Part shown: one piece after another, positions 8,585 through 52,518 of the stretch | Layout of the letters: every line of letters begins with the position of its first letter | Position numbering within the stretch: the stretch's first letter is position 1 | Source: an uncultured bacterium | GTDB lineage: Bacteria; Oederibacteriota; Muellerivitia; Muellerivitales; Muellerivitaceae | NCBI GenBank assembly: GCA_964624625.1 | Contig: CAZUXW010000004.1 | Span: forward strand, 28,931-92,930 | Length of the DNA stretch: 64,000 nucleotides | Direction of reading: 5' to 3' | The notes under the pieces: model-generated | Databases searched by the model: none | The model's input: the letters and a program-made list of their open reading frames with translations, nothing else | What the model was told of the DNA's origin: nothing | Program-made: the position numbers and the translations under genes

Positions 8585-8737
8585 AAGCGAAAATGGACTG
8601 AGGGTTCTGGTCGAGCTGGTCCTGAGATCGTTTAAAAAAACACTGATTGCGCGCAAAAACGGCCTTTAAAGCCTGTGAATTCTGAACCAGGCATTGAATC
8701 CAGTTGGGGCCCCGCGCCGGGCCTTGAGTCATTTTGG

Positions 8738-8766
8738 TTGACAATTGGGTTCGTAACTTCTATAAC
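8738..8766 (+). promoter_or_regulatory. Sigma-70-type promoter (TTGACA-17 bp-TATAAC) driving the recombinase gene
   Basis: Exact -35 hexamer, a 17-bp spacer and a 5/6 match at -10, placed 30 bp upstream of the AGGAGG RBS. Confidence 0.45.
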
Positions 8767-8786
8767 TACAATTATAGAAGTTACGA
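8751..8786. promoter_or_regulatory. Perfect 15-bp inverted repeat with a 6-bp spacer (TCGTAACTTCTATAA-ctacaa-TTATAGAAGTTACGA): candidate tyrosine-recombinase core site or autoregulatory operator
   Basis: Read directly from the sequence. It overlaps the promoter spacer and -10 and abuts the recombinase RBS. Confidence 0.5.
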
Positions 8787-8796
8787 AGGAGGAGTT

Positions 8797-12499: not shown

Positions 12500-13012
12500 T
12501 TAGTATTGGATTATAGAGTAGACGGGGGTGCTTTTCAATTTTTCATGGCCCTTTAGGAATGTCAATTGAATGATAAAACAAGCCTCCACGACTTCACCGC
12601 CGGCCCGCTCGACCAGGCGGATCGTGGCGGCCGCTGTTCCCCCTGTGGCCAATACGTCATCGAGGACCAATATCCTGTCCCCTTTTCCGATGGCGTCCAG
12701 GTGTATTTCCAGGGTGTCCTTGCCGTATTCCAGCTCGTAAGTCTCCTGCAAGGTTTTCCAGGGAAGTTTTCCCGGTTTCCGGACTGGAATAAAGGAAACC
12801 CCCATCGTGGCGGCTAAGGCTCCGCCAAAAATAAAGCCCCGCGATTCCATGGCCACGATCGAGGTGATGCGGCTGTTTTTGTAATGGTCGGCCAATTGCC
12901 GGATAACTTCCTGAAACGCCTTGGGGTCCTTCAACAGGGGGGTGATATCCTTGAAGATGATCCCCTTTTTCGGAAAATTTGGTACATCACGGATCAGGCT
13001 TTTGAAATCCAT
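12500..13012 (-). CDS. apt: Adenine phosphoribosyltransferase
   Basis: PRPP-binding motif VLDDVLATGGT and overall APRT-like sequence. Confidence 0.85.
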   Translation of the reverse strand: MDFKSLIRDVPNFPKKGIIFKDITPLLKDPKAFQEVIRQLADHYKNSRITSIVAMESRGFIFGGALAATMGVSFIPVRKPGKLPWKTLQETYELEYGKDTLEIHLDAIGKGDRILVLDDVLATGGTAAATIRLVERAGGEVVEACFIIQLTFLKGHEKLKSTPVYSIIQY

Positions 13013-13086
13013 GGTCCATCCTTTATGAGTTTTATGGGTTGGCGGAAGTTTCGGGGGAAAACGAAACGGCTTTGCCGGGAAGAATC

Positions 13087-14058
13087 TTACACAAACTCGT
13101 TTAAAAGTTCACGGTATTCTTCGCCGCTGGATTTCATGAGGGACCTGATTTTTTGGAGGGCTTTTTCCTCGATTTGGCGGATTCTCTCCCGGGTGACACC
13201 TAAAAGGGTGCCGGTTTGTTCGAGGGTTTTGGGCTGGTCCTGGTCAAAGCCGAAGCGCATCAGGATCACCTTTTGTTCCTTGTCGTTGAGGTTTTCAATG
13301 AGCTTTTTCAACTTTTCGGTGCGGAGCTGGTCAAAAACGTTTTGAGCCGGGCTTAAAACGGTTTTGTCCTCGATGAAATCACCGATGGTCTTTGAGCCGG
13401 ACTCGTCCCCCACCGTCAATTCCAGGGATAGGTCCCTTTGAGCCAGCCGTTGGAGCTTGTGGATTTTTTCGAACTTGAGACGGGAGGCTTTGGAGATTTC
13501 CATGAGGCTTGGTTCGCGGCCCAGCTTGCGGGTCAGGTCCCTGGTGATCCTTTGGACCCGGTTGATATCCTCGGAAACATGGACCGGCACCCGGACGGTC
13601 CGGGATTGGTTGGAAAGGGCCCTCGTGATGGATTGGCGGATCCACCAAGTCGCGTAGGTGCTGAATTTAAACCCGCGCCGCCAGGAGAATTTCTCGCTGG
13701 CCTTGATGAGTCCCAGGTTGCCTTCCTCGATGAGATCCTGGAAAGCCAAACCTTGATTGACGTATTTTTTCGCGACATTCACGACCAGACGGAGATTGGC
13801 GGAGATGAGCCATTGCTTGGCCTTCATATCGCCCTTTTCGATCCTCTGGGCCAGTGAAACTTCCTCGGGGCCGGTCAAGAGCTTGACCCTGGAAATTTCG
13901 CGGAAGTAGAGCTTAAGGCTGTCGGTGGTGACTCTTTCACTGGTTTTAAATTGGTTGGATTGGAATAATTTCTTGTCAAGGATGGGAATCAGCGGGGCTA
14001 TGGCCATTTTCTTGGGCTTGGTTTTCAGCTTAAGTTTCAGGTTCGCTTTTTTGGCCAT
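13087..14058 (-). CDS. RNA polymerase sigma-70 family factor (RpoD/group 1-2-like)
   Basis: Region 2 (FSTYATWWIRQSITRA) and region 4 HTH (LGVTRERIRQIEEKALQKIR). The start is taken at MAKKANLK to avoid overlap with acyP. Confidence 0.8.
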   Translation of the reverse strand: MAKKANLKLKLKTKPKKMAIAPLIPILDKKLFQSNQFKTSERVTTDSLKLYFREISRVKLLTGPEEVSLAQRIEKGDMKAKQWLISANLRLVVNVAKKYVNQGLAFQDLIEEGNLGLIKASEKFSWRRGFKFSTYATWWIRQSITRALSNQSRTVRVPVHVSEDINRVQRITRDLTRKLGREPSLMEISKASRLKFEKIHKLQRLAQRDLSLELTVGDESGSKTIGDFIEDKTVLSPAQNVFDQLRTEKLKKLIENLNDKEQKVILMRFGFDQDQPKTLEQTGTLLGVTRERIRQIEEKALQKIRSLMKSSGEEYRELLNEFV

Positions 14059-14065
14059 AACCTTG

Positions 14066-14341
14066 TTACCCTCTGATCTCAAAGCCTTGATAGTCTTGGT
14101 GATCCTCAACCCATTGGGGTTCTACCTTTTCAACCCGGCTTCCGGTGGGTCCAGCTATTAAGCTTTGCATAAACTGTTCCAAATTTGACCTATCCCCTTT
14201 CGCGAATAATTCAACGGTTCCATCCGGCCTGTTTCGAACCCAACCTGTTAAATGCAGCTCATCCGCCTTGCCTTTCGTGAAATACCGGAAGCCGACCCCC
14301 TGCACTCTCCCTTTAACAACGGCGATGAAAGCGTTAAACAT
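14066..14341 (-). CDS. acyP: Acylphosphatase
   Basis: Motifs VKGRVQGVGFR and GWVRN…DGTV characteristic of acylphosphatase. Confidence 0.8.
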   Translation of the reverse strand: MFNAFIAVVKGRVQGVGFRYFTKGKADELHLTGWVRNRPDGTVELFAKGDRSNLEQFMQSLIAGPTGSRVEKVEPQWVEDHQDYQGFEIRG

Positions 14342-14445
14342 GGGAAACCTTCCTTGGGGATAGGCTTAAAATTGTCAGTTTTTTGAATAAATTGAGCTTA
14401 TTTTTGACTTTTTAAAAATCTGTGGTAACAACCCTAAATTCGGGA

Positions 14446-14509: not shown

Positions 14510-14586
14510 TGGTCGGGGCGGCAGGATTTGAACCTGCAACCTTTTGCACCCCATGCAACTGCGCTACCGGGTTGCGCCACGCCCCG
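14510..14586 (-). tRNA. tRNA-Pro (anticodon GGG)
   Basis: Reverse complement folds as acceptor CGGGGCG/CGCCCCG, D arm GCGC…GCGC, anticodon loop ATGGGGT, T arm GCAGG-TTCAAAT-CCTGC and a CCA end. Confidence 0.8.
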
Positions 14587-14625
14587 AAAAACCGACCATG
14601 AACCGAGATGTTGAAAGGGTGACTT

Positions 14626-14701
14626 TGGTCGGGGTGAGAGGATTCGAACCTCCGGCCCCTTGGTCCCGAACCAAGTGCGCTAGCCGCTGCGCTACACCCC
14701 G
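14626..14701 (-). tRNA. tRNA-Pro (anticodon CGG)
   Basis: Reverse complement folds as acceptor CGGGGTG/CACCCCG, anticodon stem CTTGG/CCAAG with loop TTCGGGA, T loop TTCGAAT and a CCA end. Confidence 0.85.
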
Positions 14702-18892: not shown

Positions 18893-19369
18893 CTATTTCA
18901 AAACTACAAATTTCTGAAGGGGAAGCTTCGTGATTTGGCCCGTTGCCTTATCCTCGATTTGGGCTTGGTAATAGTAAATTCCCTCGGAGACGGTCTTTAA
19001 GTTCCAAAGAATGTCGAAAAGGGACCCGCCTTCTTTTTCGATGGTGGCGATCACGTCAAAGAAGCGGTTGTTGACCCGGATGCGGACTTTGCAGGGGCCG
19101 GCGGCCATGACCCTAAAGTTAAGTTTCTTGCCGCGGGCTGGGTTGGGGATGACGGTGACTTTGGGCAGGGATTTGTCGAAAACGATGGTGGGTTTGGGAG
19201 TGTCGGCGAAAATTGGGGAAAGCGGCATTGCGCCACAGATGAACAAGGATAAACACAGATGGCCTAGGAAAATCTTAAGTAGGGTTTGCCGCGTCTTAAA
19301 ACCACCCGATGGGGGTTGAGTCCCGCAAGGACGGCTAAAATTCCTAATTCCTAATCCCGAATTCCTCAT
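18893..19369 (-). CDS. Hypothetical secreted protein with a C-terminal Ig-like/FlgD-like domain
   Basis: Signal-peptide-like segment (LCLSLFICGAMPLSPIFA). The C-terminal beta-rich block (VTVIPNPARGKKLNFRV…GIYYYQAQI) resembles secretion-sorting/Ig-like domains. The start is ambiguous between M1 at 19381 and M5 at 19369, because the 5' end overlaps a TTAGGAATT repeat. Confidence 0.4.
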   Translation of the reverse strand: MRNSGLGIRNFSRPCGTQPPSGGFKTRQTLLKIFLGHLCLSLFICGAMPLSPIFADTPKPTIVFDKSLPKVTVIPNPARGKKLNFRVMAAGPCKVRIRVNNRFFDVIATIEKEGGSLFDILWNLKTVSEGIYYYQAQIEDKATGQITKLPLQKFVVLK

Positions 19370-19377
19370 GGTAGTTC

Positions 19378-20316
19378 TCATCCTGTTAATTTTACCGCCG
19401 CGACGAGGGTCTTGGCGTCTTCCACGTTCGTGACCGTGTTGTTCTTATCGCACTTCTTCACCATGGTACTGTAAATCTTGCCGGGACCCACTTCCACCCA
19501 AACCCTGAAGCCGCGATGGGTCACGGCTCCCACGGTCTTGATCCAGTCGACGGGACTGGAGTATTGCTTAATTAAGACGTCCCGGACCATCTCAAGGGTT
19601 CCAACATATTCACCATCGGAAGAGCGCAGGAAGGTGATTTTGGGATGTTTTAACTGGATCTCGCCCAGACATTCCTTCAAAAGGGCCTCAAAAGCCGGTT
19701 CCAGTTCCGCGGCCTGGGGGCTGAACAAGGGGCCCCTCGGAAGCTGGGGATTGGTCCTGATCTCTTTGACGCCTTGAACTTCGGCCTGAACGGACTTCAC
19801 CGCCTCAACCGGTCCCCAAACGATGAAAGTGTCCGGGGCCAGGTGATGGGTGATGATCAGTTCCCCTTCTTCCCTGGTCAGGAGGGGCTGGAGTTGATCC
19901 AGGGTGATTCCGGTCAAGGAAAGGGACGCGCCTCCATGCTTGAGGGCGAAAGCTTCGATCAGGGCCGCGCGCTTAACCACATATTGCAAGGCGGTGATGT
20001 AAGGAATGGACTCGGCGGCGACCAAGGCCGCCACTTCCCCCACGCCAATGCCGGTTAAGAGCTCGGGTTTCCGCCGGTTGGAAACCAGGGGATCGAAACA
20101 AGCCACGTCATTCACGAAAGTAATAAGCTGGGCATTGACGGTTTTGTCCTGCTCATCCTTGGGCCCGAGGAAGCAAGTTTTCGCCAGCTTCAATCCCAGG
20201 AGCTTTTCGGCCTTTTCGAAAAATTCCCTGGCGGACATGGATTTCGCGTAAAAATCCTTGCCCATTCCCACGTAATGGGAGCCTTCGTTGGGAAAGATCG
20301 CTGCGATGCGGGCCAT
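19378..20316 (-). CDS. FabD-like acyltransferase (malonyl-CoA:ACP transacylase family) with a substituted active site
   Basis: Aligns to FabD from memory: FPNEGSHYVGMG versus FPGQGSQ.VGM, and GIGVGEVAALVAA where FabD has GHSLGEYSALVAA. The nucleophilic Ser is replaced by Gly. Confidence 0.65.
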   Translation of the reverse strand: MARIAAIFPNEGSHYVGMGKDFYAKSMSAREFFEKAEKLLGLKLAKTCFLGPKDEQDKTVNAQLITFVNDVACFDPLVSNRRKPELLTGIGVGEVAALVAAESIPYITALQYVVKRAALIEAFALKHGGASLSLTGITLDQLQPLLTREEGELIITHHLAPDTFIVWGPVEAVKSVQAEVQGVKEIRTNPQLPRGPLFSPQAAELEPAFEALLKECLGEIQLKHPKITFLRSSDGEYVGTLEMVRDVLIKQYSSPVDWIKTVGAVTHRGFRVWVEVGPGKIYSTMVKKCDKNNTVTNVEDAKTLVAAVKLTG

Positions 20317-20478: not shown

Positions 20479-22587
20479 TTAAATATGCGGCTGGGAGGCC
20501 AGAAAATCGGTAATGGTAGCCTTGTCCGGCGGGTTAGGCACTAACAGCAAATAACGCTCGAACATTTGGGCCGCGTAATCAGCCCTGGTTCTCATATTCA
20601 TGTAACCCAAGGTCCGATAGGCCTCGGCGTAATTGGGATCAAGGCTTCGGACCGTTTCCCATTCCTTGGTCGCCTGTTCGAAGAGCCCGGCCTGGAAGTA
20701 CTGAAAGCCCAGGTGCTGATGGGCGTCCGTGGAGCTGGGATTTAATTTGACGGCCTTCCGGAAGAACTGAAGGGCATCCTTCGGATTTTTTTGGTTCTCG
20801 GCCAAGATTCCCCGGTCAAACCAGGGAAGAAAATAACCAGGGGACAATTGGGACGCCTTCTCGAAGGAAAGGGCCGCGTGATCGGTCCAGCCCTGGCTGT
20901 TCTCCACCACGCCGGCGTTGAGGAAAAGGCGGCTATTGTCGAACCCGATCGCCTTGGCCTGCATCAGGCAATCCTCCCCCATGAAGCCGCTTTTCGCCAC
21001 CTCGAGGCCGTAGGAAGCCTTGAACAGGTAATAGCGCGAGGCTGTTTCCCGCGACAAGTAATCATGGTTCAGTTCGACCCTGGGAGTCCTGAAATTCTGC
21101 CATAGGAATTCCTCCGCAGGCGGTGGATGTCCCCCATAAGCCTCCCAAAAGAGCAGTCCCTTCATCAGGAGGGTTTCCCGGGGCGCGTCGATTTTCTCGC
21201 TGTAAAAAACAGCCGAGGGGTTCTGGCGGGCTTCGTAGTTTCTTTCCGCCGCCGCCAAGAGGGGCGGGGCCGTTCCCGTCTCGTTCCGGTAATCCAACAA
21301 ATGGTAAATGTCCGGAAAGAGTCCTCCGGTGCGGTCGAAGATGTCCAGGTCGGGACGCAAATGGCGGACGAGTTTCAGGTAAGCCAAGGGAAAGGTGATG
21401 GAGTCACCCGAGCTGAAAAGAACCGAATGGGCCGGCATTTGGGAAAGGATGTCCAGGCCGACGTCCTCCACCGCCAAGTTCCGGCTGGAGTTGTTTTGGG
21501 TGAAGGCGGAAAGGGTTGAGCCGCAGAGGATGAGCGCCGCCGCCGGGATCAGGAGTGGTTTCCAGGAACCCCTTCGGGCAAAAATCCATTCCAGGCCCCT
21601 CAGAATGAGGGGTGAAAACCAAAGAAGGGCCGGGGGAAGAAAAGCCCCGTTGATGTGGTTGTTTTCGGGATTGTAATCATCCCGGATCAGGAACGGAAGA
21701 AGGATGAAAAGGCAAGAGGCCCCGATGAAATATTCCGGTTGGATCCCCTTCCGGTTTTTCCAAAGGCCTGCCGCCAGGAGAACCGGGCCCAGGCCCCAGG
21801 ACTCCAGCAGGAAATCCTTCGTGTAGAGGTAAAGGTCCCAAAAACCATTCAGGAAGGATCCGGTGGAGATGTCGCCGCCATATTGGGCCCGGGTGACATG
21901 GTAAAAAAGCTGTTGGAAGGTGGAGGGGTTTCCCCAATTGACCAGGGGAGCGAGGTTGGCACGGAGCGGAAGGACGAGGTAGGGTGATAATCCGAGGCAA
22001 AGGAGCGAGGAGGCGATCGCGGCTTTTTTACCGTCCTTAAGCTCATTTCGATAAGCCCATCCCAAGGCTGGAAGGATCAAGAAGGTTAGGTGCTGATGGG
22101 ACAGGGCGGCTCCTGTCAGGAAGCCGGCGGCGTAAAGATTGAATGTGGTTGGAAAAAGGACGAAGTTCAATAGACCCGCGGTGAAAAAAAGATGCAGCGC
22201 GAAAACTTCCGGGCTGACCATTTGGTGAAAAACCAGGGGTCCGGCCATGACCAAGCCGGCGGCCAGCAGGACAAGGGAATTTTTCCCGGTGGGGGTGTTG
22301 GAACTTCCGGCGAACTTTCCGAGGGTAGGGACCAAGACCATCAAGGCGGCGGTTTGGGCCAGTATCGACAAAAAAGTCATTCGAAAGGCGGGGGAACCTA
22401 ACGGTAAAAGCTGGGCCAAACGGCCGAGTGTGACGAAAAGAGGGTAGCCCGGAGCGTGGGCGGAGCCCAGGTGAAAGGCGGCGGCGGTCAACTCAGGCGC
22501 GTCCCCCCCCACCATCCCAGGCGCCGCCGCCGCCAAGGATAGGGCGATCCAAATAAAAGGAAGGGCTCCGGTGAAAACCGTGATCAT
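20479..22587 (-). CDS. DUF2723/TMEM260-like polytopic membrane protein fused to C-terminal TPR repeats
   Basis: The N-terminus (GGDAPELTAAAFHLGSAHAPGYPLFVTLGRL) resembles the DUF2723 signature. About 11 TM helices are followed by soluble TPR repeats. Confidence 0.6.
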   Translation of the reverse strand: MITVFTGALPFIWIALSLAAAAPGMVGGDAPELTAAAFHLGSAHAPGYPLFVTLGRLAQLLPLGSPAFRMTFLSILAQTAALMVLVPTLGKFAGSSNTPTGKNSLVLLAAGLVMAGPLVFHQMVSPEVFALHLFFTAGLLNFVLFPTTFNLYAAGFLTGAALSHQHLTFLILPALGWAYRNELKDGKKAAIASSLLCLGLSPYLVLPLRANLAPLVNWGNPSTFQQLFYHVTRAQYGGDISTGSFLNGFWDLYLYTKDFLLESWGLGPVLLAAGLWKNRKGIQPEYFIGASCLFILLPFLIRDDYNPENNHINGAFLPPALLWFSPLILRGLEWIFARRGSWKPLLIPAAALILCGSTLSAFTQNNSSRNLAVEDVGLDILSQMPAHSVLFSSGDSITFPLAYLKLVRHLRPDLDIFDRTGGLFPDIYHLLDYRNETGTAPPLLAAAERNYEARQNPSAVFYSEKIDAPRETLLMKGLLFWEAYGGHPPPAEEFLWQNFRTPRVELNHDYLSRETASRYYLFKASYGLEVAKSGFMGEDCLMQAKAIGFDNSRLFLNAGVVENSQGWTDHAALSFEKASQLSPGYFLPWFDRGILAENQKNPKDALQFFRKAVKLNPSSTDAHQHLGFQYFQAGLFEQATKEWETVRSLDPNYAEAYRTLGYMNMRTRADYAAQMFERYLLLVPNPPDKATITDFLASQPHI

Positions 22588-23354
22588 GGATTGTTTTTTA
22601 AGTTGAAGGAAAAGGTGATGACGCCCGATTGGTCGGTTTGGCTGATTTCAGGCGGAAGGGGCTCGAATTCCCATTGGACCAGGGCTTTGTAAACCACTTG
22701 GTCCAATTCGCGGTAGCCCGAGGTCTGTTCGAATTGGATGTCATTTTCCCGCAAGAGGCCGTTGGGCATGACCGTCAATTGAAGTCGGACAGTAGCCTCG
22801 ATTCCCTGTTTCTTCGCCCAGTCCGGGTACTCAGGATTCACTTGCCACTTGATGGTTCGAGCCGCCAGTTCCCCCTCAATGTTGGCGTTGCCGTTGGGGG
22901 TGCCGGCCACCCCGATATGGCCCAATCCGGCGGTGGTTTTAATTTTATTCGGGGCATCCTTTTTAAGTTCCAAACCGATGGGGGCGGAATGACGCAGGCT
23001 TTCCAAGTAGGCTTCCGACGAGGCGGCGCCGGAATGGACTTTTGGTTTGAGGGGTTTCTTGACGCTGACCTCCGGCTTTTCCGCCGCCGACACGGGCGGG
23101 TTCGACAATTCTGTCCGGGGCGTGGAGAATTCCCCGTTGGTTTCCGCCATGGGAAGTTGGACTGGAACTTCACCCGTGTGTGAAGCGGGTGATCCCAGGC
23201 CCTGGCCCTGGGACATTTGGCCGATGAGGGTCAACTCCATGAGTAGGGGCGTTCGAACCACCAAGAAAGAATGGTAGAGGACAAATAAAATAAGCAGCAG
23301 CAATCCGTGGAATAGGGTCGAGTAAATGAGGGAATTTTTAAAATCTTGTTCCAT
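22584..23354 (-). CDS. tonB: TonB-family energy transducer
   Basis: An N-terminal TM helix, a Pro-rich spacer and a C-terminal TonB-like domain (…EATVRLQLTVMPNG…VITFSFNL). It overlaps the DUF2723 gene by 4 nt. Confidence 0.65.
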   Translation of the reverse strand: MEQDFKNSLIYSTLFHGLLLLILFVLYHSFLVVRTPLLMELTLIGQMSQGQGLGSPASHTGEVPVQLPMAETNGEFSTPRTELSNPPVSAAEKPEVSVKKPLKPKVHSGAASSEAYLESLRHSAPIGLELKKDAPNKIKTTAGLGHIGVAGTPNGNANIEGELAARTIKWQVNPEYPDWAKKQGIEATVRLQLTVMPNGLLRENDIQFEQTSGYRELDQVVYKALVQWEFEPLPPEISQTDQSGVITFSFNLKNNP

Positions 23355-23363
23355 CGAGGATCC

Positions 23364-23819
23364 TTATTTGGGCGTGATGGGGGCGGGGGCATTGTCCCCC
23401 AGCTCCACGGCGATTCCCAATTTGCTGATGCCGGCCGTATAGGCCTTGGACATGATTCCCGCTACGGTTCCGTGGGAGACGTTTTTATCGGCGTTGATCA
23501 TGACCAGGGCCGCCGGCTTCTTTTGAATCAGGGTTTGGAGCAGGGCCACCAGATTTTCCAAGGGGGTTTCCGCGTCGTTCACGTAAACCTTATCCCCCTG
23601 GGTGATGGTAATGGTGATGGTTTCCGGCAAGGCTGGCGAGGGGGCCGCGACCTTCGGCAGCTTCACCTGAAAAGCGCCCTGGAACAGGAAGGGCGTGGTG
23701 ACCATGAAGATGACCAAGAGGACCAACACCACGTCGGTGAAGGGCACCATGTTGATTTCGGCGATGAGCTTCGATTTAGACCTCAGTCGGCTTTGCATCG
23801 ATAGTTCTCCTTCCGGCAA
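23364..23819 (-). CDS. exbD: ExbD/TolR biopolymer transport protein
   Basis: EINMVPFTDVVLVLLVIFMV TM segment and an ExbD periplasmic domain. Confidence 0.8.
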   Translation of the reverse strand: MPEGELSMQSRLRSKSKLIAEINMVPFTDVVLVLLVIFMVTTPFLFQGAFQVKLPKVAAPSPALPETITITITQGDKVYVNDAETPLENLVALLQTLIQKKPAALVMINADKNVSHGTVAGIMSKAYTAGISKLGIAVELGDNAPAPITPK

Positions 23820-23841
23820 ATATCAAAAACAACAAGTCCAC

Positions 23842-23943
23842 TTGCCACAGATGATCAGGGATGAACTCAGACAAATCTTTTTTAAAAGGATTTCGAATTT
23901 TAGTTTGCGCCATCCGTGTTAATCCGTGTTCATCTTTGGCTAA
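23842..23943. repeat. Copy X of a ~95-nt structured intergenic repeat (TTGCCACAGATGATCAGGGA…GTGTTCATCTTTGGCTAA)
   Basis: Lies between exbB and exbD. It shares termini and internal inverted repeats with the copies at 24587 and 42103. Confidence 0.55.
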
Positions 23944-23954
23944 CCCTAGTTTCC

Positions 23955-24566
23955 TCATCCGAACCTTTCGTTTATTTCCGAGATGACGATCTCCGCTTCC
24001 TGGGCGATTTCATTCAGCCTGGCCTGGAACCAGTTGTAGATGAAAACCGCCGAGATGGCCACGAAGAGGCCGGTGGCGGTGGCAAAAAGGGCCTCCGCGA
24101 TTCCTTTGGAAACGACCGCCGCTCCCCCGGCATTGGCCAAAGCCAGGTCCTGGAAGGCCTGAATAATGCCTAAAACGGTGCCAAAAAGCCCCACGAAGGG
24201 CGCGATGCTGCCGATGGTGGCCAGAAGCGGCAATCGGGCTTCCAGCCGCAAAAGCTGGATCTTCGCCTCCCTTTCCATGGCCTGGGTCAAGTCCGTCCCG
24301 TCATTTTTGGCCTTGAGCCCCGCCTGGACGACCTTGGCTAAAAGGGTGCCGTTTCGGTCGCAGGCTTCCACGCATTCATGGAACGTTTTTTTGTTGAGGA
24401 AGGGTTCCAAAGCCGCCATCACCTCTTCCCTTTTCCGGTAATGGGCGCGGAAATAGGTCCAGCGGTTGTAAAGCACCGCCACGACCACAATGGACATGAG
24501 GATCAAAAGGCCGATCGTCCAGCCGCCCTTCAATAAAACCTGGAACAACGAGAAATCGTGACTCAT
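23955..24566 (-). CDS. exbB: ExbB/TolQ/MotA-family proton channel
   Basis: Three TM segments with the conserved C-terminal region (…IAPFVGLFGTVLGII.AF…GIAEAL.ATA.GL). Confidence 0.85.
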   Translation of the reverse strand: MSHDFSLFQVLLKGGWTIGLLILMSIVVVAVLYNRWTYFRAHYRKREEVMAALEPFLNKKTFHECVEACDRNGTLLAKVVQAGLKAKNDGTDLTQAMEREAKIQLLRLEARLPLLATIGSIAPFVGLFGTVLGIIQAFQDLALANAGGAAVVSKGIAEALFATATGLFVAISAVFIYNWFQARLNEIAQEAEIVISEINERFG

Positions 24567-24586
24567 AAATCCTCCAAAAAATTCAA

Positions 24587-24680
24587 TTGAACCACAGAGT
24601 TACTCAGAGTTCCCAAAAGTGAGGCTTAAAATCCTTGAAATCATTTTACTCTGTGTTACCCCGTGTAACTCTGTGGTTAA
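24587..24680. repeat. Copy Z of the structured intergenic repeat (TTGAACCACAGAGTTAC…GTAACTCTGTGGTTAA)
   Basis: A 14-bp perfect terminal inverted repeat plus internal ACTC(A/T)G(A/T)G repeats, between the OM-barrel gene and exbB. Confidence 0.6.
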
Positions 24681-24685
24681 AATCC

Positions 24686-26575
24686 CTAAAAAATAACTTC
24701 AATTCCCCCGCGGATGTGAAACCTCGGCTCCAAGTATCCAGGCTGGATTTGGTAATTCTCTCCCAGCAAATTATCCCCATTCAGCCATAGGGAGAAAGTC
24801 TTGCTCAAATGGTAAGTGGCGTCAAGCCCCAGGGTCCAGTAGGCGGGTAAGGACCCAGGCAGGCTGTCGAACGCCTGCCGGTCCGACATGGCCTGCAATT
24901 CCAACCTTGTTTCCAACTGGTCGTCCCCGCGATAAATGGAAAGGATGCCCCGGTGCGCGGCTAATCCCGTAACGTTCAAACCATCCCCGGAGCGGTTCAT
25001 GCCCTGGGTCCATTGATAGGTCGCGGCAGCCTGCCAATCCTTCATGAAGTTCCATTGAACATTGGCCCCGGCCTTGGTGATTTCAACCTCGCCGAGGGTG
25101 GAATAGGCCTGGATTTGGACCGGCGCCGAGGGAGATATGTCGGTCCATTGGTGGTCGTTTTGAATCCTGGCGACGGAGGCGGAAAGCGAGGTGATGATTT
25201 TTTCCGATATTTTTTGGGTGAACCGGCCTCCCCACTCGCCGGTCACCTCCGTGGCCAGGGGAAAACCCGTTTCCGGGGCCACATGCTCGTTGTTCATGTA
25301 GGTGTTATGAAAACTATCGACGTAACGGTCCGTGCGCCAATACAGATTGAGCTGGCTTTGGCCGAAAAACCGCCACATGAGGTCCAGAACGGGGAAAAAT
25401 TTGAGGGGAAGGTCCAATCCGCTTCCGCCCTGTCCTTGGAGTTTGGCCGTTAAGGACAAGTTTTCCCCGTGTTTTAAAAAGGCCTGGAGGCCGAACCATG
25501 CCCAGTCATAACTGGTGACGGCGGGCGAGGCGAAATCCGAGGTCGCCCTCCTGCCGCCGGCCTCTAATCCGACGCGGTTCAGGAAAGGATCCAGGTCCTC
25601 GGCGGTTACCTTAAATTGGCCTTCCAACTCGCCGGTTTGGTTGGTTTTGGCGCTTCCGTCCCAGTAGGACAAGGTCGTCGGCTGGTTTGAGATTTTCACT
25701 TGGGCCTGGACCAGGTTTGAGATTTTCCAATGGAGGTCCGCGCTTTGTTCCGAACCCTGATGGGTTTCCCGAATCGAGCCTTGGTAAGGCAGCTCATCCT
25801 CGATTTGGGAGATATTCCCGGCCAAGCGGAGGCTGAAGGGTGTCGAGGAGAATAATTTGACGTCCAATCCGAAATTATAGCGCTTGTCCCCGTCCCGTCC
25901 GGCTCCCGCCGCCTCGCCGCCCCAAGTCGAGTAAAAACCGTTCAACAGGTACTGAAGATCCTTGAATTCCTGGCCGAACAGCCCCCAGCCGCCGTAGCTG
26001 TCGGGAGTTCCTCCGCCCGCGTGCAGGATAAAGGCCGTGTCCTTCGAGGGGCCCGCTTCCTCCGCGGTCAAGGCGGTAAAGGTTTTATTGAGGCCGGGAA
26101 GATCGTTGATGGCTCTTTCCACCCCGGTCAGATCGTGGCTTCCCAAGGTTACGTCATTCTCTTTTCGATCCAGCCTCTTGGCGCCGATGGTCAATTCGTT
26201 TTCCCCCGTGATGACGACTTCAGGCAGGGAAAATTCCGGAACCGCGGTGGGCCGGCTTTGAACGGGGGCCTTTTCACCCTCGCCTTGGGATGGTTTTTGG
26301 TTGGCGCCAGGGGCCTGACCGGATGGTTCTCCCGGGATTGCCGCCGCGTCGGGCTTGGAGATATCGGATTTATCCGTCGCGGGGGTGGCGGAAGAGGTCA
26401 AGTCGCTGTCGGGAAGGATCGTCTCTTCGGCCTGGACGGAGGCGGCCATCAAACCTAAAACGCCGAAAAATAAAAATAGCCGATAGAGGCCGATTTGTCC
26501 GGCGGAGTTTTTGCGGAGCCGGAGGGAGGCCGGTGGGAAACCTTTTGGGCGGGGGATTTTTATGGGACTTTTCAC
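24686..26575 (-). CDS. Outer-membrane beta-barrel protein, TonB-dependent-receptor-like
   Basis: A signal peptide, a low-complexity Pro/Ser/Gln linker, a plug/TonB-box-like PEVVITGE, aromatic-rich beta-strand periodicity and a C-terminal …GGIEVIF. At 629 aa it is short for a canonical TBDR. Confidence 0.5.
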   Translation of the reverse strand: MKSPIKIPRPKGFPPASLRLRKNSAGQIGLYRLFLFFGVLGLMAASVQAEETILPDSDLTSSATPATDKSDISKPDAAAIPGEPSGQAPGANQKPSQGEGEKAPVQSRPTAVPEFSLPEVVITGENELTIGAKRLDRKENDVTLGSHDLTGVERAINDLPGLNKTFTALTAEEAGPSKDTAFILHAGGGTPDSYGGWGLFGQEFKDLQYLLNGFYSTWGGEAAGAGRDGDKRYNFGLDVKLFSSTPFSLRLAGNISQIEDELPYQGSIRETHQGSEQSADLHWKISNLVQAQVKISNQPTTLSYWDGSAKTNQTGELEGQFKVTAEDLDPFLNRVGLEAGGRRATSDFASPAVTSYDWAWFGLQAFLKHGENLSLTAKLQGQGGSGLDLPLKFFPVLDLMWRFFGQSQLNLYWRTDRYVDSFHNTYMNNEHVAPETGFPLATEVTGEWGGRFTQKISEKIITSLSASVARIQNDHQWTDISPSAPVQIQAYSTLGEVEITKAGANVQWNFMKDWQAAATYQWTQGMNRSGDGLNVTGLAAHRGILSIYRGDDQLETRLELQAMSDRQAFDSLPGSLPAYWTLGLDATYHLSKTFSLWLNGDNLLGENYQIQPGYLEPRFHIRGGIEVIF

Positions 26576-29500
26576 TTGGAAACCTCCGTTGGAACGCCAG
26601 CGGCAGGGCCGGCTGTCGTGGGAGCGGCGCCTGGGTTCACGGTTTCAACCGGCGCGGCCGTTGGTTCAGCCTTTGCCGGTCCTGGTTCGGGGGTGGAGGT
26701 TTTCACTTTTTTACCATTTCCTTTTCCTTTTTTCACCGGTTTGGCCTTGGCGGGTTTTTTGGCCCTCTCCTTGGCCAAGAAGGGTTCTAACGCCTTGAGC
26801 CGTTTCAAGGTCGCTGAGCGGTAAGATTTAATGTGGGTGTATTTCAAGATTCGGTTATAGGTCTCCTCCGCCTTGGTAAATTGCTTCATGGACTCGTAAC
26901 ATTCCGCCATCTTGGCGAAGGCCGTCACGACCCATTGGTCCTGGGAGGGGTATTGAATCGTGATATGGTTGAACTCGCTGACCGCTTCCGAGTACTTCCC
27001 CCCCTGCTTCAGGAGGTCGGCGTGGTAAAAAGCCGCTTCCACCGCCAGTTTTTGGTTTTCGGAACGCATGGTCACTTCGTAAGCTTTCGAGGCCTCCTCT
27101 TTACGCCCGTTTTTTTCCAGCAGGACGCCGGCCTGGAGGCCCGCTTCCTGGGCTAGGGGATCCGAACCATAGTCCTTTAAAAGTTTTTGGAAATATTCCA
27201 GGGATTTATCCGGATGGCCCAATTGCTTCTCGCAGATGGCGCTGTTGAAGAGGGAGTGGGGCGCCAAACGGTGGTCGGGGTAGTCTTGAAAAATGCCCGT
27301 ATAGGAGGCGAGGGCGTCCTTGAAATCCTGGGTCTCGAAATAAATGGAGCCGAGGCTGAATTGCCCCTCCAAGGCCAATGGATCGGTTGGGAATTTTTTT
27401 AAAAGGTCCTGGAAGACAGGCAGGGCCTCCTTGTTTTGCCCGTTTTTCACCAGGGCCGTTCCCATCCAAAAAAGGGACCGGGGGGCTTCGGCGCTGGCAG
27501 GATACTTATCGAGCAGGGTTTTGTAGGCCTCCACCGCTTCAGGGTATTTCTCGTCATGGAACAAATTATCCGCCAGACGGTACTGGATGCTCGGGGCAAA
27601 GGAGCTTCCGGGGAATTTTTCCAGAAAATCCTTCGCCACCTTCGAGGACTCGGACTTTTCCCCGAGCTTTTCCGAGGACCATTGGAGGCCGTAGAGGGCG
27701 TCGGGCAAGAGCGGATGCTCGGGATAGAGATCCATGAAGCTGCGGTAGACTTTTTTCGCTTCCGTGAACCGCTTGAGGTTAAAAAGGCAGTCCGCTTCCC
27801 TGAGATGGGCCTCGGGGGCCAGGCTGTCCTTGGGGTTTTCCGCCTCCACTTTGCCGAAAAGAACCTGGGCGGAATCGAAATCCTTGTCCCGGAAACAAGC
27901 CCAAGCGGTCCAGTAGGTCAGCCGCGCCTTGCGGTCCTCCGTTCCCGGTTTTAGGAGGAGCGCCTTCCAGAGTTCCCTGGCATGGGGGAATTTTTCCTGG
28001 CGGTAGGCGCACCAACCCAGCTGCTCCATCGCGTCCAGGGAATAGGGGGCGGCGGCCTTGTCGGTGACCAATTGGCGGTAGAGGGGTTCCGCCTTTTCGT
28101 ACTGGTGCTGGTTGTAAAAGCAATCCCCTGCCCGGAGCTGGGCTTCCATCCCCAAGGGTGAGGAGGGGTTTAACCGGTAGGATTTTTGGAAATTTTTGGC
28201 GGCGTCGTCGTATTTTTCCTGCTGAAAAAGACTCCAGCCGAGCCCGGAGAGGCAATTCAAGGCCAGGTTATCCGCCGGTTGTTTTTGGAGGGCGGCCCCA
28301 TATTCTTTCTCCGCTTCCGGGTAATTTTTTAATTGGTAGTCCGTTTCCGCGGCCCCCCAAAGGGTCCTGGTCTTGAGGTCGCCCTCGGCATCCTTGGCCA
28401 CCTCGCGGAAGGTCGTCAAAGCGCTGTCGTATTTCCCCGTGGCGTAATCGCACCAGGCCTTCCAATAGGAGGAAGCTTGGGCCAACTCACCAGGCCCCTT
28501 CTCATGGGTTTGGCTGTAAAGATCCCTCGCCGCATCGTATTTTTCCTGAAGGTAGAGGCATCCGGCTTGTAGATATTGGGCGTCCCAGCGCAGGTCGCTT
28601 TCCGGAAGGAACTTAGCGACGGCCTCGAAGTGGACCTCGGCCGAGTCAAATTGGCGGTTGGAATAATCGATCCAACCCAGCCCGTATTCCAGGAGGTCGG
28701 CCGGGGTTTTATGCCCCGCCAACTCCAGGCCCCGGCGGTAGGCTTGTCCCGCCGCCTCCTGGTCCCCCAGGACGGAGGATTCGGCGCCCTGCCGGGCCGC
28801 GGCCCAAGGCGCCAACAGGTGGGTGGGAAAGGAGGCGACGATCTTGCCGAAGGTCTTTTCGGCCTGGCTGTGGTTTTTTTGTTTTTCCAGGGTCCAGCCC
28901 AGCCCATAAAGAGCCGGCGCCTCCAGGAAATCATCCGGATATTTTTTCAGGAAATACTCGTAGCCCGTTTGGGCGTCCTGGAAATTTCCAAGGCGGAAGT
29001 GGGTTTCCGCCAATTGAAAAAGCGTCAATTTGGAAAGGGTGTTGTCCTCAGGGGATTTTTCCAGGACCTGGGTGAAGCCCTCCAAAGCCTGGGTATAGTC
29101 GTTGTGCTGGTAGTAGCACCAGGCCCTCAGGTAGCGCACCAAGTTGGCGTATTGGTAGTTTGGATTTTGGTCCAGGATTTTGCCGTATTGCCTTCCGGCG
29201 TTCTCGTAGTCCTCCAGTTGGAAATAACATTCCGCCTCCCAAAAATAAAGGTCGGAGAATGTGTCCGGCTCAAAGGCCCGTTTTTCCAACTCTTGGAACT
29301 TGTCGATGGCCGACCGGTAATTTTTCAGGTAAACGGAGGACACAGCCGATTTAAATTCCAGCCCCAAGGCCCCCGCGGAGAGGGGGTTTAAGTGGAGCGA
29401 TTGTTGGTAGGCCTGGTAGGCGGAGGCGTAGTCCTTCTCGTGAAATTGCGTCTCGCCGATCAGCCGCAGGGCCAGGGCCCTTTCAATGGTGCTTTCGCTT

Positions 29501-29694
29501 TTTTCCTCGACGAGAAGAAATTGCTCCATGGCCAGGTGGTAGGCACGGGATTTCAACAGGGCTTTACCCTGGTCCGCGGGGGAGGGCGGGTCGATGCCGG
29601 CGGCGGACAAATGGCTTGGCCCCCATTGGGCGCAAATCAGCGCAACCCCAAAAAGAATGGGGCGTAAATGGCGAAGGGAATATTTCGGGGTCAT
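26572..29694 (-). CDS. Large (~1040 aa) periplasmic TPR-repeat scaffold protein with a Lys/Pro/Ala-rich C-terminal tail
   Basis: A signal peptide at MTPKYSLRHLRPILFGVALICAQWG, then about 25 TPR-like repeats (recurrent Y..A….G.Y..A pattern). The tail reads KKPAKAKPVKKGKGNGKK…. Its stop overlaps the OM-barrel start. Confidence 0.6.
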   Translation of the reverse strand: MTPKYSLRHLRPILFGVALICAQWGPSHLSAAGIDPPSPADQGKALLKSRAYHLAMEQFLLVEEKSESTIERALALRLIGETQFHEKDYASAYQAYQQSLHLNPLSAGALGLEFKSAVSSVYLKNYRSAIDKFQELEKRAFEPDTFSDLYFWEAECYFQLEDYENAGRQYGKILDQNPNYQYANLVRYLRAWCYYQHNDYTQALEGFTQVLEKSPEDNTLSKLTLFQLAETHFRLGNFQDAQTGYEYFLKKYPDDFLEAPALYGLGWTLEKQKNHSQAEKTFGKIVASFPTHLLAPWAAARQGAESSVLGDQEAAGQAYRRGLELAGHKTPADLLEYGLGWIDYSNRQFDSAEVHFEAVAKFLPESDLRWDAQYLQAGCLYLQEKYDAARDLYSQTHEKGPGELAQASSYWKAWCDYATGKYDSALTTFREVAKDAEGDLKTRTLWGAAETDYQLKNYPEAEKEYGAALQKQPADNLALNCLSGLGWSLFQQEKYDDAAKNFQKSYRLNPSSPLGMEAQLRAGDCFYNQHQYEKAEPLYRQLVTDKAAAPYSLDAMEQLGWCAYRQEKFPHARELWKALLLKPGTEDRKARLTYWTAWACFRDKDFDSAQVLFGKVEAENPKDSLAPEAHLREADCLFNLKRFTEAKKVYRSFMDLYPEHPLLPDALYGLQWSSEKLGEKSESSKVAKDFLEKFPGSSFAPSIQYRLADNLFHDEKYPEAVEAYKTLLDKYPASAEAPRSLFWMGTALVKNGQNKEALPVFQDLLKKFPTDPLALEGQFSLGSIYFETQDFKDALASYTGIFQDYPDHRLAPHSLFNSAICEKQLGHPDKSLEYFQKLLKDYGSDPLAQEAGLQAGVLLEKNGRKEEASKAYEVTMRSENQKLAVEAAFYHADLLKQGGKYSEAVSEFNHITIQYPSQDQWVVTAFAKMAECYESMKQFTKAEETYNRILKYTHIKSYRSATLKRLKALEPFLAKERAKKPAKAKPVKKGKGNGKKVKTSTPEPGPAKAEPTAAPVETVNPGAAPTTAGPAAGVPTEVSK

Positions 29695-32348: not shown

Positions 32349-32447
32349 AAATTAGGAATTCGGAATGAGGAGTTGGGAATTGAACCAAAAGCCGCGGGAT
32401 TGTCGTTGGTTTTAAAATTCCTAATTCCTAACTCCTAATTACTAATT
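32349..32447. repeat. Inverted-repeat element built from TAGGAAT-like heptamers (AAATTAGGAATTCGGAATGAGGAGTTGGGAATT … AAAATTCCTAATTCCTAACTCCTAATT) flanking a 27-bp core
   Basis: Read directly. It lies in the plsC upstream region and overlaps the last codons of the DAHP synthase gene. A related copy is at 19337-19369. Confidence 0.55.
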
Positions 32448-34383: not shown

Positions 34384-37300
34384 TCATTTTAACCGCGAAT
34401 TTACTTCGGTCCAAAAAGTTGGACGAAGAAAACTTTTCAACATTTGAACCGAGTCTTCCAGCCTCAATTCACTCCGGATCAACAGCCCTTTCCCGACCTT
34501 TTGAAGGATCACCGCTGACCGGCCGGGATTCTTCGAAAGGGCAACAAGGGACGCCCATTGGGAACCCTTGGCGGTTAACCCATGATCGACCTTTCCCGCG
34601 GCCAATCCTGGGACAAAGCCGAAGAGTTCCGCCAGGGCCGGCCCTTCCCGGCGCCCGCCCTCCTTGGAGGGAACCGCCTCATCCCTCGTGTCGTCCACTT
34701 CCCAACCCCCTTGCGTCAAATGGATCAACCACTCGGGAAGAATCTCCCGGTTTGAATAGGCCGGTCCCAAGAAAAGTATCCCGCCCCTTTCCAGGAATTT
34801 TTTGAAGGCCTTTCCCAGCTCCTGGTCGGCCCAGTAAGAGGCGGGTTTAAAATGATGGCGGCCCGAGGAAAAGGCGCCGGTGCCTAAAACCGCCAGTTTG
34901 GTCCGTAAGGCTCCCTTGTCATCCAACAGTGCGGAAGCGATGTCCCCGGTGGAAATCGGCAGGTCCATATCCAGGAAACTGACCGAAGAGGTGACCCGCC
35001 TCATGGTCTTGAGCTCGCTGCCGCCCACCGATGGGAAGTTGGCTGGTTCGGTATTTTTGTGTTTTAGGAAAATCCCCGAGGGCGTGGTGAGGAGCAGGAG
35101 GCTGGAGGGTTCCACCAGGTAAGGTTCCGGTTGAAAAGGTTGGGGCGGCGGCGGGTTCCGTTCCCCGCTCGGAAGTTGGGACCCTTCGGAAACGGTGATG
35201 GTTTGGTCCTGGCCCTCCGCCAAAGTAAAACGGCACCTGGCTTCCCTGCCGTTGGTTTCAGCCAACGTTTTTTGCCATTCCACTGAACCCAAAGTGGTGA
35301 GGTTGGATAAAAGGTGTAGGCTTGCCCAAATATCAACCAGGACTTCAGGGGAGGGACCCTTGTCCAGATGAAAGTTGACGGACCATTCTTTCGCCCCGGT
35401 TCTTTTCAGGGAAAATGAGACTTGGGATTTTCCGACGAGAAGCCTCTGGGCCGAGAATATTTTCAAATCCTCCGGCAGGTGGGGCGAAAACACAACCCGG
35501 TTGTTTCCGGCGTCCGGGGAGAAGCCCGTGATAAATTCCAAAAGCGACTCCGTATTTAAACCGCCTTCCCAGGGCCTCACCCTCCCGCTGGTACCAAGTC
35601 CCCAAGCAGGCGTATTCCAGGGGTGACATTGACCGTCGTACATCTCGGCGAATTCGCCCGAAGGCGTGGCGGTTTTGAGAACCGCGCGGTAGGCCTTTTC
35701 GGCCCAGGGCAGCCGGGCTTTCGAAAACGAGTAAAGCAATTGGCCGGGATTCATTCCCACGAAAAAATCAACCGTCGGCGTTGTTTTCCAAAAACCATCT
35801 TCCCTTCCGAGAATGGGATAAGCATTACGCAAGGCGGCAACCGCATGGCCCGAACTGGAAGGCGTTTCGCCTAAGGGGTCTAAGTCGTTCCTGGCGTAAC
35901 CGCACCAAAAGGGATTGATCAGGACATTGGCCTGGGGCGCGTTGACCAGGGGGCCCAACAGGGATTGGGCCGGCGCCCAATAGCCGGCTTTTTCGTTCCA
36001 ATAGGTGGCCTCGGCCTTGTCGCGGACCTTGCGGGCCAGGCTGGTCATTTCCGAAACATCCTTATCCATCTCAATATATTTTCCCAAGTAGGCCAAGCGG
36101 TCCGCGGCCGCGACGAGGTCGAAGCTGGAATCCGCCGCGAAGGCGTAAGTGGATAGGTCGTAATTGGGACAGGGGCATTGGTCAAAGCACCTGGATTCGA
36201 GGCACCAAAGATAGGTCTCGTCCCGGTGGAAAAAATACTTGTCCTCCACCCGGACCTGTCCCTCGACGCATCGTTTTAAATAGCCCCACCTGGCCCGGAT
36301 CAGGTCGATGTCGCCGGTCGTCAGGTAATACCACCAATGCTGCAGCACAATCCAATTGGGAGTCTCCGCGTGCTCCACTTGGATGTCCGAAAGGTCTTTT
36401 TTCCGGAAATTCAGGGGGAAATCCACCCGGACGCTGTTGGGAAGGGATCCCATGCTCGAGGCGATCCCGTAAAAAAAATCCATGGCTCCCTTCGCTTCCC
36501 GGGGATGGCCTGTTTTCAAAAACCAGCGGATGGGGCCGTTGTTGTCACGGATCCAAGTGTAGGAATAACCGATGAGCGGCGAGAAGCCTCCGGAGTGGGA
36601 TTGCTGGCTCTTAAAAATCATCGATTCAATCTCGAAAAGATCCGTGATTTTGGGATCCCCGGCGAATTCCGTTCCCTGCCGGAACCAATCGGTGAAATAA
36701 ACGCGGGTCTGATCCAAAAGGGAGAGGGCTCCTTTTTTGCGGAGGCCGGCGCTGTCCGCGGCGCTTTCCCGGGAAGTATCGGAGGAGAGAAGAAAGAAAG
36801 CGGCCCATGTTTCCCCGCCTGGCGGCAAGCTTGGAAAGCGGTAGCGGAGGTTGCCTTCGGATATGCTGGCGTTGCCCTGTTGGAAAGCCCCCAGCCTCCA
36901 TACCGTTCGCTTTTTCGCCTTCGCGGCTTTTTGAACCAACACCAAATCATGGCCGATGTTTTTCTTCGGGGCTGTCACGTTCCAGGCTGCTTGGATTTTC
37001 AACTCAAGATTCAGGTCGGATTCGGTTTTTGTTCCCGAGTTGGTGAGGTGGACCATCCGGATGATAACGGGCGTGTTGTTCCAAACGGCATCATCCTCGG
37101 AAGTCACTGGGGCGAAATCATAACTCTCGACGGACAAACCGCTCCCCTGGGCTTCCACCTTCACCAAGCCGGACCTTTTCACCCAGCCGATTTTTTGCCC
37201 GGGAAGCCAGACGGGGCTGCCGCCCCTGGTCAGGGCCATGTGGAGGGAGCCCAAGTCCGGCTCTTGATAGGAATCCCCGTAGATGTTCGACCAATTCCAA

Positions 37301-48937: not shown

Positions 48938-48945
48938 GAACACAA

Positions 48946-52517: not shown

Positions 52518-52518
52518 G

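Follow-up and report, generated by a model that had tools for sequence, protein, structure and literature searches.

Textbooks give diderm bacteria two routes by which energy of the inner membrane is delivered to the outer membrane, the TonB system and the Tol system. New partners of 5:2 motors are being actively sought, vWA transducers and Glt systems among them (PMC12204202, PMC3169522), and in the Agl-Glt core complex (aglRQS with gltD/E/G/C) of Proteobacteria and Fibrobacter a TolQR-type motor is found with a TonB-like protein and giant tetratricopeptide repeat (TPR) proteins (PMC3169522). At the outer membrane, natural and engineered plug-less SusC transporters have been described in Bacteroides (bioRxiv 10.1101/2025.11.13.688124). 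Here we describe a locus of an uncultured bacterium of candidate division FCPU426 in which a motor of the Ton/Tol type is encoded next to an outer-membrane barrel and a giant TPR protein. It spans positions 20479-29694 of a 64,000-nucleotide stretch of contig CAZUXW010000004.1 (assembly GCA_964624625.1), the whole of which is referred to as the window, and comprises six close-packed open reading frames (ORFs), all on the minus strand, in the transcription order TPR, barrel, exbB, exbD, tonB, DUF2723. The reading that we favour, with moderate confidence, is that the first five genes form a self-contained Ton/Tol-type trans-envelope machine, in which the motor acts on its own plug-reduced barrel and the TPR protein is the periplasmic partner.

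The cassette and its conservation

A scan of one genome per species provided 24 loci, the majority of which bear the label candidate division FCPU426, and the window proteins were mapped onto all of these. Wherever a fetched FCPU426 locus was long enough, it showed the order TPR-barrel-exbB-exbD-tonB, at barrel identities down to 40%, and in every FCPU426 species examined the cassette occurs once per locus and at one conserved position, within a syntenic neighbourhood that reads aroG, plsC, rpsA, cassette, fabD, a small gene, der, plsY and gpsA.

The block recurs in three lineages outside FCPU426. In an Ignavibacteria metagenome-assembled genome (MAG; L030) a TPR protein (995 aa) is followed by a 572-aa protein, a 156-aa protein, ExbB, ExbD and TonB; an hhalign comparison shows the 572-aa protein to be a homologue of the barrel family (probability 91%, E 9e-7, 341 columns), and the 156-aa protein, which lies between barrel and ExbB, gave no family match. 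An Ignavibacteriales-like lineage (L041) presents a TPR protein (990 aa), a 531-aa barrel, a SPOR-domain protein, ExbB, ExbD and TonB, the SPOR-domain protein being an insert in the barrel-exbB gap (12611-14380 of that locus; 589 aa) with a weak N-terminal HU-like match and the SPOR domain at its C-terminus. The third, an uncultured clade (L034/L035/L036), shows the plain order of TPR (1046 aa), 590-aa barrel, ExbB, ExbD and TonB, flanked by genes for a trehalose-phosphatase and a UvrD-like helicase. A metagenome scan with a narrower barrel alignment yielded two short loci, both of them informative, and a protein search with a diverse alignment gave 11 matches, one of them useful. In all four lineages the stop of the TPR gene overlaps or abuts the start of the barrel gene.

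The flanking genes of FCPU426 and of the three outside lineages are unrelated, while the five-gene order is kept. Because the block recurs in three other lineages while its flanks change, the five genes are considered a conserved cassette, and their order is far beyond chance. An earlier note on this DNA, made from the letters and translated reading frames alone, had proposed that motor, barrel and giant TPR protein are linked, and the synteny across the phylum and in the three outside lineages with other flanks supports that proposal. The same note had suggested gene-neighbourhood analysis across relatives; the five proved syntenic whereas the sixth, the DUF2723 gene, did not. Measured against the refuting conditions that the note had named, its core idea stands.

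Components of the machine and its possible function

The three motor proteins are readily recognized. ExbB matches PF01618 (MotA_ExbB) with E 3.2e-34 and ExbD matches PF02472 with E 4.4e-29, while the TonB-like protein matches PF03544 with E 1.3e-11 and exceeds the cut-off of TIGR01352 (50.8 bits against 27.1). At the level of NCBIfam models the best match of ExbB is tolQ (126 bits, cut-off 221), ahead of TIGR02797 exbB (91 bits, cut-off 206), and that of ExbD is tolR (92.7 bits, cut-off 127), ahead of TIGR02803 ExbD (67 bits, cut-off 153). The TolQ and TolR models outscore those of ExbB and ExbD in both FCPU426 and Ignavibacteria, and in the window the TolQ, TolR and TolA equivalogs all stay below their cut-offs, tolA_full giving 18 bits on the transducer against a cut-off of 59. 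For ExbD the ATG at 23798, which stands behind GGAAGGAG, is a likelier start than the TTG at 23819. A transmembrane aspartate of ExbD and the S-x3-H residues of TonB are required in Ton and Tol motors. ExbD of the window has its transmembrane Asp in FTDVVLVLL, and the TonB-like protein has S-x3-H (STLFH) in an N-terminal transmembrane helix, which a Pro/Lys-containing linker joins to the TonB_C domain at the C-terminus, so that the motor proteins, judged by sequence, retain the residues needed for function.

The barrel protein begins with a signal peptide and a low-complexity linker, followed by an invariant segment of ~65 residues (113-177) that opens with PEFSLPEVVITGENELTIGAKRL. An AlphaFold2 (AF2) model built with 32 homologues has 22 strands over residues 180-629, at a predicted local distance difference test (pLDDT) of ~80-97, and a Foldseek comparison of this model with the PDB places BtuB first (E 3.5e-18, TM ~0.6), all matches listed being TonB-dependent transporters (TBDTs). 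The relationship is far fainter in sequence. No Pfam family, PF00593 included, matched the 629-aa protein at E<=0.01; the siderophore-receptor model TIGR01783 gave 18.9 bits (cut-off 223), C-terminally; and sequence profiles (PDB, canonical TBDT) align its C-terminal ~120 residues alone, to Cir, OprC and a metagenomic B12 transporter. PF00593 is passed by some members of the family and by distant relatives. An exact-sequence look-up of the window barrel returned no match, and the 64 relatives present in a collection of 5.8 billion proteins all come from uncultured ‘bacterium’ MAGs.

The canonical TonB box reads xTxVVTA, which the motif LPEVVITGE at the start of the invariant segment of the barrel resembles. 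In the form LP[ED]V[VI]I.GE this motif is invariant in FCPU426 and is found in ~20 distant representatives of 50%-identity clusters (515-595 aa), and the Ignavibacteria barrels carry the versions MPEYIITG and LPDFVITG. From the motif to the first strand there are ~55 residues, as against ~130-150 in a canonical plug (PF07715). Neither the window barrel nor ten distant relatives, several of which pass PF00593, gave a match to the Plug domain (Pfam, E<=0.01). By these profiles a canonical plug is not present in the barrel.

The 1040-aa TPR protein has a signal peptide after the ATG at 29694, is nearly all TPR and ends in a Lys/Pro-rich C-terminal tail. Many TPR Pfam families match it, and TIGR02795 (tol_pal_ybgF) gives 282 bits against a cut-off of 90, a score that is the sum of 10 repeats in 10 stretches; the protein can be described as about ten CpoB/YbgF-like three-TPR units. 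Scores of 282-374 bits were obtained with the same model across the TPR proteins of FCPU426 and Ignavibacteria, and in FCPU426, the Ignavibacteria loci L030 and L041 and the L036 clade alike the barrel gene adjoins that of a homologue of ~1000 aa. A fusion of TPR protein and barrel (a ‘Rosetta stone’) was sought among long TPR homologues, and none was found.

In the machine that we propose, the proton-driven ExbB/ExbD stator would energise the TonB-like protein, the C-terminal domain of which would bind LPEVVITGE of the barrel by β-strand augmentation and pull on the short N-terminal segment of ~55 residues standing where a plug of ~130-150 residues normally sits. The TPR solenoid of ~1000 residues, made together with the barrel, would dock on the periplasmic side of the barrel and may act as a scaffold, either as a bridge towards the cell wall and the inner membrane or in the handling of cargo. 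The role of the cassette is probably housekeeping, in constitutive envelope maintenance or gating, and not nutrient-specific, because it is phylum-universal, lies among housekeeping genes and is adjoined by no Fur or extracytoplasmic function (ECF) sigma regulator, binding protein or ATP-binding cassette (ABC) importer in the loci examined. A constitutive envelope role is also argued for by the TolQ and TolR best models, the CpoB-type TPR units and the SPOR gene of one lineage.

Several points weigh against this proposal. Since the whole neighbourhood is syntenic in FCPU426, the data from that phylum taken alone are no proof of functional linkage. A TPR-barrel pair of Marinilabilia (L031), the barrel of which is weakly similar to the window barrel family, has no adjacent motor, and a Zixibacteria homologue of the TPR protein (L033) adjoins neither barrel nor motor. 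If this is the sole TonB/ExbBD set of the genome, the motor might simply be the general TonB system. The absence of a plug, moreover, is argued from failed profile matches and from the length of the segment, and as barrel residues 41-177, the conserved N-terminal segment included, are modelled at pLDDT <50, a small plug or mini-plug is possible.

A specific version of the proposed machine, and not a strict alternative to it, is a functional analogue of Tol-Pal that tethers or constricts the outer membrane as cells grow and divide, a possibility to which we give tentative weight. The barrel, by way of a TonB/TolA-box-like strand, would here take the anchoring role of TolB and Pal, while the giant CpoB-like TPR protein would coordinate this activity with cell-wall synthesis. 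In Tol-Pal itself the contact between TolA and TolB is a strand augmentation onto a short N-terminal box. The analogy gains from TolQ and TolR ranking first among the NCBIfam models that match the motor, in Ignavibacteria as in FCPU426, from the CpoB/YbgF-type units of the TPR protein, from the SPOR (septal peptidoglycan-binding) gene inside the cassette in one lineage, from the universal occurrence and housekeeping context of the cassette in FCPU426, and from CpoB-like TPR proteins being regular companions of Tol-Pal outside Proteobacteria (PMC12204202). It suffers, however, from the equivalog scores for TolQ, TolR and TolA, all under their curated cut-offs, from the TonB_C domain of the transducer and from the lack of a TolB or Pal gene in or beside the cassette in any lineage. 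In addition, the window encodes PD40 lipoproteins at another place (47627-49953), as well as a protein with an OmpA domain (61167-63587), so that a separate Tol-Pal-like system may exist. The former are two adjacent PD40 (TolB-like propeller) proteins on the plus strand (47627-48937 and 48922-49953), the first with a lipoprotein-like N-terminus and no motor or Pal gene beside them; the latter (minus strand, 806 aa) contains Big_13, FlgD_ig and a C-terminal OmpA peptidoglycan-binding domain and could fasten the outer membrane to the cell wall as an anchor of the Pal/OmpA type.

That the locus is instead an ordinary TonB operon for nutrient uptake, with a general Ton motor, a small divergent receptor and the TPR gene as an unrelated neighbour, appears unlikely. 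The barrel does have a TBDT fold, C-terminal TBDT homology and a TonB-box-like motif, several members of its family match PF00593, and tonB, exbB and exbD are often encoded together (PMC12204202). Yet no member tested matches Plug, the stop/start overlap of the TPR and barrel genes is kept in four lineages, the five-gene order persists amid unrelated flanks, no regulator, binding protein or inner-membrane importer lies adjacent, and the cassette is found once per locus, at its one position, in every FCPU426 species examined. With no Plug match, no Pfam family and no nutrient-uptake genes nearby, the view of the earlier note that the barrel is something other than an ordinary siderophore or B12 receptor has held.

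The TMEM260-like gene, the spacers and other features of the window

The sixth gene, which lies in a slot between tonB and fabD, encodes a 702-aa protein that matches PF11028 over residues 29-180 (62.7 bits, cut-off 24.2) and has C-terminal TPRs; in a phmmer comparison it is related to the structure of human TMEM260 (9rql, chain 9rql_A) with E 8e-19. In the alignment its D29 is paired with D52 of the human protein (GGDapEL..AHaPGYPLF against GGDsgEL..AHpPGYPLF), a residue implicated in catalysis (PMC10214176). Because D29 matches D52 within a nearly identical loop, the 702-aa protein is probably an active periplasmic GT-C glycosyltransferase with a periplasmic TPR domain. A single-sequence AF2 model of it (pLDDT 41) was unusable.

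The slot is variable. Only eight of the ~22 scorable FCPU426 genomes (21 fetched species and the window) carry the DUF2723 gene there, namely the window, L005/L017, L006, L007, L009, L016, L019 and L024. In L001/L026, L003, L022, L023, L028 and L029 the slot contains no gene and is a spacer of ~65 bp, and in other FCPU426 loci it holds different genes, which by reading of the sequences include EAL-like and zinc-ribbon-type ones. In a neighbour-joining tree built from the barrels, all carriers of the gene fall into three sub-clades of a single large clade, and the gene was found neither in the two earliest-branching FCPU426 groups nor in any cassette outside FCPU426. As the slot is variable in FCPU426 and the cassettes elsewhere are without this gene, the conserved unit is one of five genes and not six. 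The DUF2723 gene is a lineage-specific add-on, inserted behind tonB in one FCPU426 sub-lineage and outside the core machine, and the claim that its product is hard-wired to the system is not sustained by this distribution.

A second GT-C gene, unlinked to the cassette, lies at 37596-39320 (minus strand, 574 aa, with a weak PMT_2 match), and its stop overlaps the start of a gene for a 1071-aa secreted protein without a Pfam family (34384-37599, minus strand). GT-C enzymes paired with large envelope proteins thus seem recurrent in this genome.

Pairs of a TPR protein and a barrel are known in the export of exopolysaccharides and lipoproteins, as in BcsC, PgaA, AlgK/AlgE and Slam. A hard-wired six-gene system for envelope assembly, protein glycosylation or secretion, with the DUF2723 GT-C enzyme as an integral part, could draw on this theme, on the overlap of the GT-C gene with the tonB stop in the window (ATGA) and in its closest relatives L005 and L006, on the catalytic Asp and periplasmic TPR domain retained by the enzyme, and on Ser/Thr/Pro-rich segments that could be glycosylated, which occur in the barrel, in the tail of the TPR protein and in the linker of TonB, but we regard it as improbable, given that the gene is missing in ~14 of the ~22 scorable FCPU426 genomes, both earliest-branching groups among them, and from all Ignavibacteria and L036-clade cassettes, that the low-complexity regions also occur in species lacking it, that the same slot holds unrelated genes in other species, and that GT-C enzymes may simply be common in this genome, as the second, unlinked gene would suggest. 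A role of the cassette in glycosylation or secretion is pure speculation.

Table 1. Features of the locus, listed from the 5' end of the minus strand
Feature	Coordinates	Strand	Remarks
Giant TPR protein gene	26572..29694	-	1040 aa from ATG at 29694; open frame reaches TTG at 29835
Barrel gene	24686..26575	-	629 aa
Structured palindromic repeat 1, barrel-exbB spacer	24567..24685	-	119 nt; minimum free energy -35 kcal/mol, z -3.4
ExbB/TolQ-type proton-channel subunit gene	23955..24566	-	203 aa
Structured repeat copy 2, exbB-exbD spacer	23820..23954	-	135 nt; aligned to copy 1; z -0.6
ExbD/TolR-type subunit gene	23364..23819	-	151 aa as called; 144 aa from probable ATG start at 23798
TonB-like force transducer gene	22584..23354	-	256 aa
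TMEM260-like (DUF2723) gene	20479..22587	-	702 aa

The packing of the six genes (Table 1) is as the earlier note had described it. The junction of the TPR and barrel genes (26575/26572) reads GGAGG-N7-GTGA and that of tonB and the DUF2723 gene (22587/22584) ATGA, and both are true stop/start overlaps, the second of which couples the DUF2723 gene translationally to tonB. The domains assigned in that note (TMEM260-like, TonB_C, ExbD, MotA_ExbB and TPR) were likewise recovered in Pfam and NCBIfam scans, and the two structured repeats that it had placed at the borders of exbB are present at 24567-24685 and 23820-23954. Its description of the locus as a six-gene operon has not been established: the barrel-exbB spacer ranges from ~15 to ~870 nt among relatives, holding an antisense gene in one of them (L005), and the cassette is flanked on both sides by co-directional housekeeping genes. 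Operon boundaries cannot be set computationally, since a scan for promoters and terminators at the locus performed no better than chance.

The two repeats around exbB share the 5' arm TAGGG..TTA.CCA.AGA..ACACGG..TAACAC.GA and a long-hairpin architecture, and can be aligned at 75% mean column identity; in comparison with shuffled sequences the first is clearly more stable, whereas the second is not. The shared word pattern occurs five times in the window, against 0.16 expected. A third member, whose inverted arms are ACAGGGATTTACACAGA and ACATGGATTTACACCGA, lies at 42117-42182 in the spacer that precedes the gene for EPSP synthase, and there is a weaker match at 19243-19259. The exact pattern was absent from the related loci compared with the window, and Rfam holds no family for these hairpins. 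The spacers around exbB measure 8-30 nt in distant relatives, where that between barrel and exbB has 15-30 nt. Hairpins of unrelated sequence, with z ~-5.6 relative to shuffled sequences, lie in the barrel-exbB spacer of L006 (7794-7923), L009 (5460-5609) and L010 (11726-11850), and the words GGTTGCTTCGTCATA and CTCGCAATGAC, common to L009 and L014, suggest another repeat family. As relatives carry unrelated hairpins there, the junction between the outer-membrane and motor genes appears to be a tolerated insertion site for palindromes of each genome's own. REP (repetitive extragenic palindromic) elements occur inside operons of E. coli, and by analogy the palindromes in the spacers might give the outer-membrane and motor halves of the cassette unequal mRNA levels.

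A different, AT-rich repeat of 34 nt (TAAAATTCCTAATTCCTAA...) is present in 85% identical copies at 19336-19369 and 32413-32446, directly downstream of the fabD and aroG stops (minus strand), and probably inflates the N-terminus of a 162-aa ORF (18893-19381). Elsewhere in the window, a gene for a 621-aa PD40/β-propeller protein (834-2699, plus strand) is followed by one for a 1074-aa protein (2726-5950, plus strand) with Peptidase_MA_2, PD40 repeats, fn3 and a C-terminal Omp85-superfamily barrel, an unusual fusion of protease and propeller to an Omp85 barrel. Other features include two adjacent T2SS-F (TadB/TadC-like) genes (51651-53358, minus strand), a phage-integrase-family tyrosine recombinase (8734-9882, plus strand) and two tRNA genes (14513-14701, minus strand).

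Comparison with known systems

Literature searches, which were of limited reach and amount to absence of evidence, returned no description of a cassette of TPR protein, plug-less TBDT, ExbB, ExbD and TonB. If confirmed, the cassette would provide a third kind of output for such motors, in which a TBDT-fold barrel without a Plug match and a giant TPR protein are served by a motor of their own, from FCPU426 to Ignavibacteria. It would offer a natural test of how TonB acts on a barrel with little or no plug to unfold, and represents a concrete, probably essential envelope system for FCPU426, a phylum without a cultured member and with almost no functional literature. A bolder idea, which for the moment we think rather doubtful, is that of a multi-phylum class of TonB-type machine whose motor would open or pull a plug-less 22-strand gate fitted with a TPR solenoid, serving in outer-membrane tethering or in envelope export or assembly and not in the import of nutrients, with a TMEM260-type enzyme recruited in the sub-lineage of the window.

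In composition the Agl-Glt core complex of Myxococcus and its relatives is closest, since there, too, a giant TPR protein (~1200 aa) is encoded together with a motor and a TonB-like transducer, as a unit that occurs in several phyla. It differs in having two ExbD/TolR paralogues (AglQ and AglS), several TPR proteins and an FHA-domain transducer, and in lacking a TBDT-like barrel. Membership of the cassette in this group was rejected on its single ExbD and on the scores for NF033758 GltE (36.5 against 225 bits) and NF033768 AgmX/PglI (18 against 40). The F. succinogenes cluster FSU_2396-2403 (PMC6851124), compared from its published descriptions alone, probably belongs with Agl-Glt, and the TPR protein of a ‘Fibrobacter sp.’ (L038/L039) was set aside, its context being without the cassette.

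Other candidates were also rejected. Membership in PorW/SprE was ruled out on hidden Markov model cut-offs. The PgaA, BcsC and Slam exporters have barrels of 14-18 strands, in contrast to the 22-strand, TBDT-like barrel of the cassette; the PgaA model TIGR03939 gave 18 bits against 367, on the TPR region of the DUF2723 protein, and TPR_Slam matches as generic TPR, with no significant single stretch. The locus L040 of Roseiconus lacunae, a cultured planctomycete (CP141221.1, 1612787-1632086), encodes a TPR protein (1099 aa), a long ExbB (395 aa), ExbD, a 916-aa protein without clear family, a second MotA_ExbB protein (493 aa) and a protein of >716 aa. It is not this cassette and resembles the TPR/tolQ/tolR/transducer family of the PVC group (PMC12204202), a family that fits L040 and not the locus described here.

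The sixth gene has its counterpart in the protein O-mannosyltransferase TMEM260/DUF2723 (PMC10214176; 9rql), with which it shares the N-terminal GT-C module, the GGDxxEL...HxPGYPLF loop with the catalytic Asp and, on the side away from the cytoplasm, a C-terminal TPR domain; it differs in being bacterial and in standing behind tonB in part of one phylum alone. For the barrel, the plug-less SusC-type proteins provide natural and functional examples of a TBDT-type barrel without a plug. The SusC barrels, however, belong to polysaccharide-utilisation loci, where they have been proposed to act as hollow channels through which small sugars pass, with no TonB-box requirement or dedicated motor described, whereas the cassette barrel has the motif, its own motor and a TPR partner.

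With Tol-Pal and CpoB/YbgF the cassette shares the TolQ/TolR best motor models, the CpoB-type TPR units and a housekeeping-like conservation. Unlike Tol-Pal it is without TolB, Pal and a TolA-type C-terminal domain, its outer-membrane partner is an integral 22-strand barrel, and its TPR protein, at ~4x the length of CpoB, does not have the CpoB architecture (80 bits with the full-length model PRK10803, cut-off 383). The likeness to TonB-ExbB-ExbD and its TBDTs, such as BtuB and Cir, extends to the MotA_ExbB, ExbD and TonB_C domains, the key transmembrane residues, the 22-strand barrel and the N-terminal TonB-box-like strand. In contrast to these, the cassette barrel has no detectable Plug and a far shorter span from motif to first strand; one motor is paired with one barrel outside any nutrient-uptake context, and the barrel comes with an obligatory TPR partner of ~1000 aa, whose gene is translationally coupled to its own.

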